Shown one piece after another: positions 961 to 4,474 of a stretch of DNA of 4,474 nucleotides. The first letter of the stretch is position 1. Every line of letters begins with the position of its first letter. The stretch is from the IMG/VR virus record IMGVR_UViG_2740892268_000007; one strand, 5' to 3'. The notes under the pieces were generated by a model, which was not told where the DNA came from, searched no databases, and saw only the letters and a list, made by a program, of their open reading frames with translations. The position numbers and the translations under genes were made by a program. Source of the stretch: a virus (lineage: Duplodnaviria > Heunggongvirae > Uroviricota > Caudoviricetes).

Positions 961-1264
961 GGTCACTCTTACTTCCTGGNNNNNNNNNNNNNNNNNNNNN
1001 NNNNNNNNNNNNNNNNNNNNNNNNNNNNNNNNNNNNNNNNNNNNNNNNNNNNNNNNNNNNNNNNNNNNNNNNNNNNNNNNNNNNNNNNNNNNNNNNNNNN
1101 NNNNNNNNNNNNNNNNNNNNNNNNNNNNNNNNNNNNNNNNNNNNNNNNNNNNNNNNNNNNNNNNNNNNNNNNNNNNNNNNNNNNNNNNNNNNNNNNNNNN
1201 NNNNNNNNNNNNNNNNNNNNNNNNNNNNNNNNNNTGAAGCAGATAGCCTCAAGCACCCGCAGTC

Positions 1265-1294
1265 ATTCTACTTACCTCGCCAATATGAAATCAA
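1265..1294 (-). promoter_or_regulatory. Candidate promoter directed into the masked block
   Basis: On the minus strand: TTGATT (plus 1289-1294), 18-nt spacer, TAGAAT (plus 1265-1270). These are the same two hexamers as the candidate at 801-828. It sits just downstream of the queH-like stop and points into the N block. Hexamer match only. Confidence 0.2.
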
Positions 1295-1315
1295 TCAGAA
1301 AGGTGCCCCATAAAA

Positions 1316-2002
1316 TCACTCCTTCTCTTCTTTACCGTAGTGGAGTTGACCAATTTTGATAAGAGGGCGTCCCTGAGATTTGCGGTGTAGATTGGTATCG
1401 CGCAGAGAATACACACAGCCACAATATTCCTGCTGATAGAATTTTTCGCGCTTGCTGATTTCAATCATACGGGACGAGCCGCCCTGCTTGCGCCAGTTAT
1501 AATCCCAGTACACCATGCCCGGATAATGCGCGACGGCTCGCCGCCCACAGTCGTTAACCTGCTGCATATTTTTCCAGCGTGAAATGCCCAGTGAACTGCT
1601 GATCACACTGAAACCATTTTCAGCGGCGTACAGCGCTGTCCGCTCAAAACGCATGTCAAAACACATGGTGCAACGGATCCCTCGTTCGGGCTCCCATTCC
1701 ATTCCTTTGGCTCGTTCAAACCAGTTGTCTGTGTCGTAATCAGCATCAATAAACGGCACGCCGTGTTGTTCAGCAAAGCGAATATTCTCATCCTTACGAA
1801 TTAAATACTCTTTCTGAGGATGAATGTTCGGGTTGTAGAAAAAGATGGTGTAGTCGATTCCCGAGGCCTGAAGCGCCTCCATCACCTCACCGGAACATGG
1901 AGCACAGCAAGAGTGCAGTAGTAGTTTGTTTGCCCCGTTTGGGAGCTCCAATTTGGGCCGTTTGAAATCAGCAACTGTCATAAATATGTTTATTGGGGTC
2001 AT
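1316..2002 (-). CDS. queH: QueH-like epoxyqueuosine reductase (DUF208 family, Fe-S, cobalamin-independent)
   Basis: 228-aa ORF with ATG at 2002-2000 (alternative ATG at 1981-1979) and stop TGA 1318-1316. The protein carries [11 protein letters not shown] near the N-terminus, FYNPNIHP...EY...R, RC..C in the middle and [11 protein letters not shown] near the C-terminus, which I recognise from memory as the conserved Cys and aromatic motifs of the QueH/DUF208 family. No obvious SD in front of either ATG. Confidence 0.8.
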
Positions 2003-2149
2003 AAAAATATCAAAGAGTGTAGCATTAGAACGGGGCTATCGGAAACAGATGTGTGACTGCTCCCCGCCCTTTCGGGTGGTCTCCTGATGATTTGAGGGTG
2101 CAGAAATCCCTCCGGTTAAGGATTAAATTTTTAACAGTGCTAAATTTAA

Positions 2150-2506
2150 TTATTCAGTTCTGGATTTTGTCGCCCTGCGTATCCGCGCTTTCGCGTTACG
2201 CTCAATCTGTATCAGCTTTTCTATATTTCTCCGCCTTTCCTGTTCCTCCTGGCGCAATAGCCTTACATCATCTGCCAGTCTGGTTTCTCTTTTTGCCACA
2301 GAGAGCATCCAGTCAAACGGCTCCACAACCGCACCGCAGATTTTACAGCGGACCTGACGCTCTTTTTCGTCAACCCGTACAGAGGCGTGATGGCAATATG
2401 GTCTTTCCGATGGCTCATAAAGAAAATTAACCTGATTACGAGGGTCATCCTCTTTTACCGGAAATAAAACGATATTGCTTAACTCATCTTCTGGTTTTAT
2501 TTCCAT
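2150..2506 (-). CDS. Small zinc-ribbon protein with basic coiled-coil tail, function unknown (118 aa; maximal ORF 2150..2563 is 137 aa)
   Basis: ATG at 2506-2504 is preceded by the purine tract AAGGAGAGGAG (strong RBS). The alternative ATG at 2563-2561 directly abuts the upstream TGA (TGAATG) and has AGGAGG 11 nt upstream. Protein has C-H-H ... C-x-x-C (CHHASVRVDEKERQVRCKIC) followed by an Arg/Glu-rich helical tail. Stop TAA 2152-2150. Confidence 0.65.
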   Translation of the reverse strand: MEIKPEDELSNIVLFPVKEDDPRNQVNFLYEPSERPYCHHASVRVDEKERQVRCKICGAVVEPFDWMLSVAKRETRLADDVRLLRQEEQERRRNIEKLIQIERNAKARIRRATKSRTE

Positions 2507-2563
2507 GCTCCTCTCCTTTGATGCGAATGCCAGCGGTAATTGAAGCCTGATAGCTAATTTCAT

Positions 2564-2986
2564 TCACAGTATCGCCTCCTGAAAATTACCCTGATAGAAA
2601 GCCAGTACACGCTGCATAGCTTCGCTCTTCCGGCACTCGCGACAGATTATATTCAGGCGCCTGTCGTAGCGGCGTATTTCTCCGTCAGGTAATGACCAGA
2701 TAAGGTCCGGATCAACAACAACCGGTTTCCTCACCTTTACTCTCGAGAGTTTTTTGCGGGCGCTTTGCCAGTCCTTGCGAGCCTGTTCAGACGGGAATAA
2801 GCCGTAGCCAGAATTATATACATCACCACTTGCGACCAGTTCTATGCATAAGCGACCGACAGACGCACGACTGATACCTGTTTCATCTGACAACTGCCGA
2901 ATCGTGACCCGACCGTCCTGATGCACGAGTTCCACAATTCGCGTCTTCAGTTCTTCCCGCTGTTCGGGAGTAAAAGGTTTCGCCAT
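2564..2986 (-). CDS. ren: Ren-like winged-helix protein (140 aa)
   Basis: ATG at 2986-2984 preceded by a perfect AGGAGG with a 4-nt spacer, lying 11 nt after the helicase-loader stop. N-terminal HTH (TIRQLSDETGISRASVGRLCIELVASG). C-terminal motif ICRECRKSEAMQRVLAFY resembles, from memory, the lambda Ren C-terminus (...KECRQSAAMKRVLAVY). Its position directly after the helicase-loader gene matches lambda O-P-ren order. About 45 aa longer than lambda Ren. Confidence 0.55.
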   Translation of the reverse strand: MAKPFTPEQREELKTRIVELVHQDGRVTIRQLSDETGISRASVGRLCIELVASGDVYNSGYGLFPSEQARKDWQSARKKLSRVKVRKPVVVDPDLIWSLPDGEIRRYDRRLNIICRECRKSEAMQRVLAFYQGNFQEAIL

Positions 2987-3000
2987 AAATCCTCCTGAAA

Positions 3001-3792
3001 CTACTTAACAACCCTCGAATGGCTAACATTCGGACGCCAGCTCTCCCAGTTAAAATTCACCCAGCGCCCGCCGTTCATGACCATGCGATCCATCACCCGC
3101 TCGCCGAGCAATGTTTTCATCACCTCATAGTTCAGGTTTGTCAGCATCCCCACGCTGCGCATCGACGCTGTCCGGCGATCAACAATCTGGTGCAGCACCA
3201 CCTGCTCGTTTTTCGTCTCGCGCTGAATGCCAATTTCATCAAGAACCAGCAGATCCACTTCGCACAGCTCCCGCAAAAATTTTTCGCCTGACTGCCCGTC
3301 GTCATAGCTGGCGTGCAGGGCGCTCATAACATCAGCCACGGTAACCACAATCACTGTCTGACCGTCTTTCAGCAGGCGATTCCCGATAGCTGCCGCTAAG
3401 TGATTCTTCCCGGTACCAGGTTTTCCGCTGAACGCAAAATTTGTACACCCGGTCATCAGTTCATCGGCGATGGATTTCGCCTGGCTTAACGCGTATCGCT
3501 GGCCGTCGTTCTGNNNNNNNNNNNNNNNNNNNNNNNNNNNNNNNNNNNNNNNNNNNNNNNNNNNNNNNNNNNNNNNNNNNNNNNNNNNNNNNNNNNNNNN
3601 NNNNNNNNNNNNNNNNNNNNNNNNNNNNNNNNNNNNNNNNNNNNNNNNNNNNNNNNNNNNNNNNNNNNNNNNNNNNNNNNNNNNNNNNNNNNNNNNNNNN
3701 NNNNNNNNNNNNNNNNNNNNNNNNNNNNNNNNNNNNNNNNNNNNNNNNNNNNNNNNNNNNNNNNNNNNNNNNNNNNNNNNNNNNNNNNNNNN
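3001..3792 (-). CDS. DnaC/IstB-like AAA+ helicase loader (phage replication protein, YdaV/P-like); true start hidden in N block 3514-3792
   Basis: Visible part has Walker A (FSGKPGTGKNHLAAA), Walker B (DLLVLDEIG) and a C-terminal region typical of DnaC-like prophage proteins; stop TAG 3003-3001. A DnaC-like protein of roughly 245 aa would start inside the mask. The track ORF 3001..3972 (TTG) fuses it to the upstream initiator C-terminal domain through the Ns. Confidence 0.8.
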   Translation of the reverse strand, partial: XXXXXXXXXXXXXXXXXXXXXXXXXXXXXXXXXXXXXXXXXXXXXXXXXXXXXXXXXXXXXXXXXXXXXXXXXXXXXXXXXXXXXXXXXXXXXQNDGQRYALSQAKSIADELMTGCTNFAFSGKPGTGKNHLAAAIGNRLLKDGQTVIVVTVADVMSALHASYDDGQSGEKFLRELCEVDLLVLDEIGIQRETKNEQVVLHQIVDRRTASMRSVGMLTNLNYEVMKTLLGERVMDRMVMNGGRWVNFNWESWRPNVSHSRVVK

Positions 3793-4141
3793 CGCGAACA
3801 GGCCCTGGTATTCATTGGCGATGCTGTGTCGAATCACCTGCTCAGGTGTAAAACCCTGCTGACGGAATTTTTCCAGTTCCCGTATCGCCCCGTTAGCGCC
3901 CTGCTCCGTTCGAATCGGTTTTCGCAATGCCTGTCTGAACCGGACCCACTCATGCCAGAGTGTTTCCGGCAACCAATCGGGCAGCTCAATAGCCTCCGGC
4001 TCGAATTTTTTAGACGCTCGTTTTTGGCGAGGGGGAGATCAGTATTTAGATCTTCCTCTTCCTCTTCCTCTGGTAACGCTTTTTGATCCGTTTGTGTAAC
4101 GCTGGCAGCGTTACCTTTTCGTTTCAGTTCGCGTATTTTTG
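3793..4141 (-). pseudogene. Frameshifted middle and C-terminal portion of the phage replication-initiator gene (acidic linker plus helicase-loader-interaction domain)
   Basis: After the 4142..4405 ORF stops, coding continues without any start codon in the -1 frame (KKRAVTNERVTKIRELKRKGNAASVTQTDQKALPEEEEEEDLNTDLPLAK...), then again in the next -1 frame (KKFEPEAIELPDWLPETLWHEWVRFRQALRKPIRTEQGANGAIRELEKFRQQGFTPEQVIRHSIANEYQGLFA) into the N block. Frame changes coincide with T8 (4167-4174) and T6 (4006-4011) or T5 (4021-4025). This is either a true pseudogene or a homopolymer miscall. Confidence 0.5.
4051..4070. repeat. (TCTTCC)3 hexanucleotide tandem repeat, encoding EEEEEE on the minus strand
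   Basis: Plus strand tcttcc tcttcc tcttcc tc at 4051-4070; minus-strand codons gag gaa gag gaa gag gaa within the initiator linker. Confidence 0.7.
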
Positions 4142-4405
4142 TTACTCGCTCGTTTGTAACCGCCCGTTTTTTTTAGAGCTTTTTCCGTTATGACGTTCAA
4201 AGTTAGGTAGAGAAAGCCCTCCGTCATTTTCGACCAGCCATCCAACCTGAATTAACGCATCAGCAAAACCAGACATAAAAGTGATGCGATCTATTGCACT
4301 TTTTGTAACGCCGCGAGCGTTACAATCTGCATTACCGTCTATCATTTGTTGATCCGCCCATGCCCAGAAGCGAATAACCTGAGGTAGCCTGAGTTTAACG
4401 GACAC
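4142..4405 (-). CDS. N-terminal fragment of the phage replication initiator (replisome-organizer / YdaU-like DNA-binding domain), likely 5'-truncated
   Basis: 87-aa ORF (GTG 4405-4403, stop TAA 4144-4142) ending ...LSLPNFERHNGKSSKK, which resembles the lambda-O-type ...PQNEGKSPKK boundary between DNA-binding domain and linker. The first 9 codons (4380-4405) are encoded by what looks like an IS terminus, so the real N-terminus is probably missing. Confidence 0.5.
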   Translation of the reverse strand: MSVKLRLPQVIRFWAWADQQMIDGNADCNARGVTKSAIDRITFMSGFADALIQVGWLVENDGGLSLPNFERHNGKSSKKNGRLQTSE

Positions 4406-4474
4406 TCCTTCCTGAAATAGAATGGCATCAGAAGGAGCTAATAATGAGCAGAAAAACCCAACGTTACTCTAAAG
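4380..4474 (+). mobile_element. Probable IS3-family insertion sequence, left terminus and start of orfA (continues beyond window)
   Basis: Begins with 5'-TGAGGTAGCC (IS3-family elements characteristically begin 5'-TG). About 64 bp later there is AAGGAG, a 6-nt spacer and ATG (4444-4446) opening a plus-strand ORF MSRKTQRYSK..., which matches the N-terminal pattern of IS3-family OrfA proteins (basic stretch, then R-Y/F-S, usually followed by EFK). The orientation is divergent from, and abutting, the phage operon. Confidence 0.45.
4444..4474 (+). CDS. Partial CDS (first 10 codons): putative IS3-family transposase OrfA N-terminus
   Basis: ATG at 4444 with a near-ideal SD (AAGGAG, 6-nt spacer); reads MSRKTQRYSK and runs off the window. 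Identity inferred from 10 residues plus context only. Confidence 0.4.
   Translation, partial: MSRKTQRYSK

Follow-up and report, generated by a model that had tools for sequence, protein, structure and literature searches.

The ren mutants of bacteriophage lambda are reportedly sensitive to Rex exclusion, and a role of ren in the escape from this exclusion is said to have been described by Toothman and Herskowitz in 1980. According to Thomason et al., ren is transcribed from pR and is "likely involved in DNA replication", and the Rex proteins show two-hybrid interactions with O and Ren. The Rex-escape phenotype is recorded for lambda Ren only, and not for the proteins of the Pfam family DUF977. 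Here we describe a DUF977 gene in a 4,474-nucleotide (nt) stretch of phage DNA (Caudoviricetes; IMG/VR virus record IMGVR_UViG_2740892268_000007), which in its full length is called the window below. The coding sequence occupies positions 2564–2986 on the minus strand, runs from ATG to TGA and encodes a protein of 140 amino acids (aa), which the initial annotation had named Ren-like and had proposed as a candidate anti-exclusion factor. The name proved to be justified, since the protein shares with lambda Ren the family PHROG 142, a profile–profile match with a probability of 96.9% and the same genomic slot. Membership of DUF977 and of a wider Ren superfamily is in our judgement very probable.

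The open reading frame (ORF) at 2564–2986 is genuine and intact. Its start on the minus strand reads GTAG TTTC AGGAGG ATTT ATG, and the ribosome-binding site noted earlier is indeed perfect: a Shine-Dalgarno sequence AGGAGG, read directly from the DNA, lies at 2991–2996 (minus strand), 4 nt upstream of the ATG. The protein scores 116.5 bits against Pfam DUF977 (PF06163; cut-off 22.1, E=1e-33), with residues 1–136 aligned to positions 1–134 of the 134 in the profile. It also matches PHROG 142, annotated as "Ren-like exclusion protein", with E=2.7e-44 (residues 1–139 on positions 1–115 of 116), and lambda Ren itself (NP_040633, 96 aa, from NC_001416) matches the same profile with E=1.6e-41; as this profile mixes DUF977 and Ren types, it is partly circular as a proof of kinship when taken alone. 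The first 60 residues also give hits to many winged-helix families of Pfam, of which HTH_24 exceeds its threshold. The gene is 99.8% identical at the DNA level to that of the RefSeq "DUF977 family protein" WP_001118169.1. Thus, it is already catalogued, and its link to Ren is already present in PHROGs and in pharokka-style annotations, so that as a finding of a genome scan it is routine and ordinary.

The evidence for kinship with Ren is concentrated in the C-terminal part of the protein. In a BLASTP comparison, residues 112–131 (NIICRECRKSEAMQRVLAFY; 2594–2653, minus strand) align with residues 73–92 of lambda Ren (NLVFKECRQSAAMKRVLAVY) with 12 of the 20 positions identical and 17 positive (pairwise E=3e-7), which bears out the C-terminal resemblance that had been noticed from the sequence. 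The motif common to both families, 20–24 residues in length, may be written N..[C/F].EC[R/K].S..M.R[V/I]L.[F/V]Y. The 140-aa protein also conforms to the strict Ren version, TN(L/I)(I/V)FKECRxSxxMKRVLAVYG, but has C115 where Ren has Phe, and hence carries the CxxC specific to DUF977. This first Cys is present in 151 of 152 proteins on the DUF977 side, and all 41 proteins on the Ren side have Phe in its place. The motif starts at residue 112 here and at residue 73 in Ren, and these are also the medians of the two families.

For the profile–profile comparison two separate alignments were built, one of diverse DUF977 proteins (27–83% identical to the query) and one of Ren proteins. With hhalign they matched at a probability of 96.9% (E=1.9e-10) in a single register running through both domains. 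When the alignments were split, the C-terminal parts matched each other over 24 columns with P=1.9e-10, and the N-terminal winged helices matched with P=5e-4 and a probability of 31%, in the same fold class and register; the Ren N-terminal reference used here was MTGKEAIIHYL...INQAAAKMARAG. The cross controls gave P=0.12 (N-terminal against C-terminal) and P=0.64 (C-terminal against N-terminal). A hidden Markov model built from Ren proteins alone scored DUF977 proteins at 18–25 bits, and in nearly all of the best-scoring hits listed it placed Ren residues 70–93 on DUF977 residues 109–132. When one genome per bacterial species was scanned with a degenerate DNA version of the motif, 43 stretches were found, and 41 of them encode true family members. 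A single-sequence search of 1.84 billion representatives gave 116 clusters (50% identity) at E<=1e-3, a limited diversity, with no Ren-type protein at this threshold, thus indicating that only profile methods connect Ren with DUF977.

At the DNA level the motif is 62% identical to its lambda counterpart, with 17 of 20 second codon positions but only 7 of 20 third positions conserved. The latter value points to an old divergence in which the motif was kept by selection on the protein, and a recent recombination as the origin of the common motif was therefore ruled out.

Furthermore, enterobacterial proteins of 96–141 aa bridge the Ren and DUF977 forms. Proteins of Siccibacter (100 aa) combine a Ren-like N-terminus with the CxxC of the DUF977 type; proteins of Scandinavium and Citrobacter (117 aa) combine the long linker with the Phe of the Ren type; and proteins of Enterobacter (114 aa) and Lelliottia (129 aa) are of in-between length (the loci of these intermediates are L043 6394–6696, L052 on the minus strand, L019 7372–7725, L045, L053 and L023). 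Lambda Ren and the 140-aa protein have the same order of parts, i.e., winged helix, linker and motif, and in both cases the gene is the last one of a pR-type replication operon and lies 5′ of a NinB-like region. They differ in that lambda ren follows the lambda P gene and the gene studied here follows that of a DnaC-like loader, and in length, Ren having 96 aa and the 140-aa protein an internal surplus of about 29 residues, made up of a post-wing helix and a basic linker, together with short terminal extensions. Accordingly, the 140-aa protein falls outside a strictly defined Ren family, whose members have about 96 aa, only a short linker separating the wing from the motif, and Phe at the position of C115. 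Taken together, these results lead us to place Ren and DUF977 as branches in a single superfamily of enterobacterial prophage proteins, which is built of a winged helix, a variable linker and a C-terminal motif.

The N-terminal helix-turn-helix (HTH) reported earlier in the 140-aa product could be specified as a winged HTH of residues 1–66 (2789–2986, minus strand), comprising three helices and a beta-hairpin wing with the invariant G62 and F64. In the AlphaFold2 model, which has a mean predicted local distance difference test score (pLDDT) of 78, the winged helix is predicted with very high confidence (blocks within 10–70 at pLDDT 94–96). It is followed by a post-wing helix, extending to about residue 86, and a basic variable linker, together residues 67–110 (2657–2788, minus strand). 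In the numbering of the model, which is that of the ORF minus one, the helix spans 66–85 and positions 86–99 have pLDDT below 50 (about 15 linker residues, approximately 87–100 in the ORF); short C-terminal helices are modelled over the motif with pLDDT 57–76. With a pLDDT of 43.6, the AlphaFold model of lambda Ren does not allow the two structures to be compared, though the order of its helices is the same. The residues invariant in the family are, in ORF numbering, T28, G62, F64, Y107, N112, C115, E117, C118, M124, R126 and F130; that the CxxC might hold a dimer together through zinc or a disulfide is a guess.

The initial annotation had also described a basic, Pro-rich insert of about 45 aa, absent from lambda Ren, which might alter specificity. 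The segment in question is A69–R110, 42 aa in length. It is basic (13 Lys/Arg vs. 6 Asp/Glu), but with three Pro residues (7%) it is not Pro-rich. Nor does Ren simply lack it, since Ren has its own wing/linker of about 22 aa at this place, so that the net internal excess amounts to about 29 aa; what remains of the 44-aa difference in length is found at both termini. The segment is not peculiar to this gene either: it is the linker of the whole DUF977 family, variable throughout the family in both length and sequence. An effect on specificity finds no support in it, as it is the least conserved segment of DUF977, with pLDDT falling below 50 at about 15 residues.

The second line of evidence is the genomic position. 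As had been proposed, the gene directly follows that of a helicase loader: its ATG lies 14 nt 3′ of the stop codon of a gene for a DnaC/IstB-like helicase-loader ATPase of the ydaV type (3001–3747, minus strand; 3514–3792 masked by N). The loader gene corresponds to positions 11240–11986, "ydaV ATP-binding protein", of a more complete Escherichia coli prophage (L002), and the Walker motif GKPGTGKNHLA is present in its translation. This prophage and the window are 99.8% identical over window positions 1235–3513. The comparison showed that the 140-aa gene closes the early-right replication operon of a Rac-type lambdoid prophage, and we regard it as a probable accessory gene of this operon.

The rule extends beyond this locus, as the gene for the Ren-motif protein comes directly after the final replication gene, of whatever type, in about 19 of 20 sampled prophages. 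The preceding gene is lambda P in lambda (O-P-ren-ninB) and in Phytobacter, and a DnaB-like helicase in Leclercia and Siccibacter (by Pfam) and in Silvania, a second Siccibacter locus and a truncated Kluyvera neighbour (by sequence resemblance only). It encodes an IstB/DnaC-like loader in the window (initiator, ydaV, 140-aa gene), in locus L010, in Citrobacter and, by the Walker motif only, in Enterobacter; an O-like protein of 320–335 aa in L004 (HTH_36), L012–15 (weak HTH_36) and L006 (no Pfam hit on record); and a DUF1627 protein in L008 and in the phage Rac-SA53 (L011). The retention of the motif behind non-homologous replication proteins suggests that the phage loader or initiator is a less likely partner than a host factor or an exclusion protein of wide occurrence. 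In Rac-SA53 (L011 4223–5423) and in a metagenomic prophage (L008 3237–4354), DUF1627 and DUF977 genes stand in tandem after the replication genes, pointing to a slot in which winged-helix proteins of various kinds accumulate.

The best explanation of these data, to which we assign a probability of roughly 0.45, is that the 140-aa protein belongs to the lambda Ren superfamily, as a form with a long linker, and acts as a Ren-like accessory factor. Such a protein would be co-expressed with the replication proteins upon induction or infection, its winged helix would position it on DNA or at the replication complex, and the conserved C-terminal motif would serve as the partner-binding element; in this way it could sustain phage replication and development in cells that possess abortive infection of the Rex type. 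An actual anti-Rex or anti-exclusion activity, proposed by analogy with lambda Ren, is doubtful when judged separately. If DUF977 does act like Ren, a counter-defence or replication-protection factor would be present in E. coli and Shigella prophages by the thousands, and the family would offer a second and more diverse entry to the mechanism of Ren. The useful products of the comparison are the sharply defined common motif, the natural intermediates and the rule of the last replication gene.

Several points weigh against this explanation. Homology to Ren is secure for the C-terminal motif only; the winged helices match weakly, and as judged from their sequences the DNA-binding halves of Ren and DUF977 may not be specifically related. 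Lambda Ren obtains no score with the Pfam DUF977 model, structure searches returned generic winged helices only, and the Cys/Phe switch may mean that the chemistry of the motif differs between the two families. The slot has one exception, a Scandinavium gene located 3′ of RecT, and its constancy could simply reflect the conserved gene order of lambdoid phages. In the sampled DUF977 prophages, the immunity region carries YdaS/Cro-YdaT modules, and a rexA/rexB-like gene adjoining the repressor was seen in none of them, so that protection from their own Rex in the manner of lambda does not apply. No experimental or functional work on a DUF977 protein was found in the literature searched and, since the mechanism of Ren is itself obscure, "works like Ren" is a thin inference.

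The same observations allow a reading in which defence evasion has no part: a DNA-binding accessory protein of replication, its winged helix sitting at or near the origin or the replication complex and its C-terminal motif contacting a host replication protein (e.g., DnaB or a chaperone by which the loader complex is remodelled), thereby tuning initiation or the switch to late replication. Consistent with this are the placement behind the final replication gene, of any type, in about 19 of the 20 contexts, the strong ribosome-binding site and the spacing of 14 nt from the loader gene, candidate origin palindromes located about 1.1–1.3 kb upstream inside the initiator gene, and the quoted opinion of Thomason et al. 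on ren. On the other side stand several features of lambda. Dispensability of ren has been described for P-lethality and replicative killing, and the effects of CRISPR interference (CRISPRi, targeted repression) on ren vanish once Q is supplied, thus indicating that the apparent essentiality is polar. Lambda phages with the nin5 deletion, which includes ren, still form plaques. In addition, a binding site for the winged helix is putative only. This reading is possible, though we would not bet on it; we consider it about equally likely as an anti-exclusion function, and an ordinary transcription regulator less likely than either.

A further alternative would make the protein a small winged-helix regulator of the MarR, DeoR or Lrp kind, acting on the downstream "nin-like" genes or on host genes, with the motif as a dimerisation element. 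The hits to HTH_24, IclR, MarR_2 and AsnC, below or near threshold, and the conserved basic residues at the HTH (G25, R26, T28) would fit such a function. Yet the protein has neither a ligand-binding nor a canonical dimerisation domain, its sole family-specific signature is a tail of 24 residues that follows a linker with predicted partial disorder, no promoter-like site lies between the gene and the genes downstream on the same strand, and the position rule ties the gene to replication genes and not to a regulated target. We therefore regard such a regulator as improbable.

A bolder version of the Ren-like explanation may be put forward as speculation at long odds. In it, the Ren/DUF977 motif would be a portable anti-abortive-infection module directed at one common partner, either an exclusion protein of the RexA/RexB type or a host replication factor monitored by systems of this type, and the CxxC would add a zinc or redox dimer contact. 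If this were true, DUF977, related DNA of which is detectable in roughly two of every three complete E. coli genomes, would rank among the commonest counter-defence genes of enterobacterial prophages, and the post-replication slot occupied by Ren, DUF977 and DUF1627/YdaW would be a dedicated counter-defence locus of lambdoid phages.

The typical character of the protein within its family is evident from its distribution. Among phages, 24 records of homologues are named LygF or "Ren-like exclusion protein", most of them 72–77% identical to the 140-aa protein and one 61.9%; those named LygF include Rac-SA53 and Shigella phage 75/02 Stx, both in the 72–77% class. "LygF" is a locus name from a difference region of Salmonella Enteritidis and carries no functional meaning. 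Compared with Pfam DUF977/"LygF" proteins of Rac-type, mEp460-like and Stx phages, the 140-aa protein is a typical member without material difference. DNA similar to the gene was detected in 3,617 of 5,426 complete E. coli genomes, only 87 of which have a match spanning at least 80% of the query, and the lambda-type ren in 2,873. Identical 140-aa ORFs occur in Shigella flexneri SFBU1023 (L024) and E. coli ECMA0423 (L041). According to the loci L020 and L039, both strains carry two copies of the gene, one of them with the substitution G102R, which indicates that the prophage fragment was duplicated there.

Exact copies of lambda ren were also encountered in assemblies of Pseudomonas, Bradyrhizobium, Oceanobacillus, Psychrobacter, Nocardioides, Veillonella and others (loci L018, L022, L025, L026, L028–L031, L033, L037, L040, L048, L050 and L056). 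Many of these contigs are very short, and several contig names give a coverage of about 1x; their presence in unrelated bacteria is most simply explained by contamination of the assemblies with lambda DNA.

Other winged-helix families were set apart from the 140-aa protein. An assignment of the E. coli K-12 protein YdaW to DUF977 was ruled out, as YdaW belongs to DUF1627 (PF07789) and phrog_630. YdaW of the K-12 Rac prophage (L003 5753–6313) is likewise a winged-helix protein whose gene lies just 3′ of ydaV in Rac-type prophages, but it lacks the Ren motif and differs from the 140-aa protein in both its Pfam and its PHROG family; a BLASTP comparison of the two gave E=0.054 over the HTH only, and the 140-aa protein has no DUF1627 hit. 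The ydaW gene has been reported as a "blocker" of the retron-Sen2 toxin (bioRxiv 10.1101/2020.06.22.160242). Since YdaW is not homologous beyond the generic HTH, this activity is not transferable to the 140-aa gene. Similarly, a Z-alpha domain, which was indicated by weak sequence hits and generic fold hits, was rejected: the Asn and Tyr of helix 3 that contact Z-DNA correspond here to G44 and I48, and in the DUF977 family these positions are mostly Arg/His and non-aromatic, respectively; the wing reads G-L-F-P-S in the 140-aa protein vs. Pro-Pro-x-Trp in Z-alpha. Neither the Z-alpha proteins (PKZ/ZBP1/ADAR1) nor the regulators of the MarR, ArsR and MntR type have the post-wing helix, the linker and the Ren motif. 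A search with the PADLOC defence models gave only weak matches to winged helices of the Csa3/CasR type, with E-values of 1.7e-3 or worse.

As for the locus itself, the window is a short contig of a dead prophage fragment bounded by the insertion sequence IS600, in which the 140-aa gene is a passenger. IS600 ends form the left boundary (1–86, 100% identical to both IS600 copies of L002) and the right boundary (4380–4474, 100% identical to the L002 copies); IS600 belongs to the IS3 family, and the fragment between the two copies is 4.3 kb long. At the left end, IS600 truncates a DUF1367/NinB-like gene, the match of which covers only positions 1–102 of the 198 in the profile. Towards the right end lies a pseudogene of the replication initiator in the position of YdaU (3754–4380, minus strand; phrog_2509, E=9e-37). 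Its 5′ end, approximately the first 34 codons, is replaced by IS600 at 4380, and it has a +2 frameshift in a run of T near 4169–4176 as well as a patch of indels at 4037–4055; these lesions were read from an alignment with the intact L002 gene and from a three-frame translation. IS600 at both ends, the broken initiator and the truncated NinB-like gene together identify the fragment as dead. Pieces bounded by IS copies in this way are typical of short-read contigs of the Shigella type, and the occurrence of identical proteins in S. flexneri SFBU1023 and E. coli ECMA0423 makes Shigella or a Shigella-like E. coli the probable source.

There is accordingly an even chance, in our estimate, that the gene is idle at this locus, being an ORF that has not yet decayed and that IS600 has cut off from its early promoter. 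In favour of this are the IS600 copies at both ends of the window, the damage to the initiator and NinB-like genes, and the lack, within the fragment, of any promoter-like site on the minus strand upstream of the gene. Against it, neither the ORF nor its ribosome-binding site nor the loader gene is damaged, all three match the copy in the more complete prophage at 99.8% identity, and identical proteins persist in S. flexneri and E. coli genomes. Idleness concerns the state of this copy and not the function of the family, and is thus compatible with every other explanation considered here, including that of a Ren-like accessory factor.

Around the 140-aa gene, no promoter or terminator signals of note were found. 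Its TGA directly abuts an ATG, from which the next ORF was called with 137 aa (2150–2563, minus strand). This ORF matches phrog_1621 with E=5e-56, aligned from residue 20; its true start is probably the ATG at 2506, as suggested by a AGGAGAGGAG site of its own at this ATG, the beginning of the phrog_1621 alignment and the RefSeq start (L002 12481), which would give a gene of 118 aa (2150–2506, minus strand) of unassigned function. The phrog_1621 protein contains two CxxC pairs resembling a zinc ribbon, and Pfam Zn_Ribbon_TF remains below threshold.

Between the replication module and the NinB-like gene lies a gene for epoxyqueuosine reductase QueH (1316–2002, minus strand; Pfam E=2e-65), which is unusual cargo for the early region of a lambdoid prophage. 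By correspondence with L002, a hokD toxin gene is located mostly at about 933–979, and the run of N at 980–1234 covers its last few bases and falls in the intergenic region between QueH and a 95-aa ORF; because of the other run, 3514–3792, the N-terminal portion of the DnaC-like gene and the last part of the initiator gene cannot be read. Inside the initiator gene there are two near-identical palindromes, GTAACGCTGGCAGCGTTAC and GTAACGCCGCGAGCGTTAC, at 4096–4114 and 4305–4323, and half-site-like repeats, TTGTTACTCGC and TTGTAACCGCC, at 4139–4163. These palindromes and repeats are candidates for origin iterons or for binding sites of the initiator or of the winged-helix protein.

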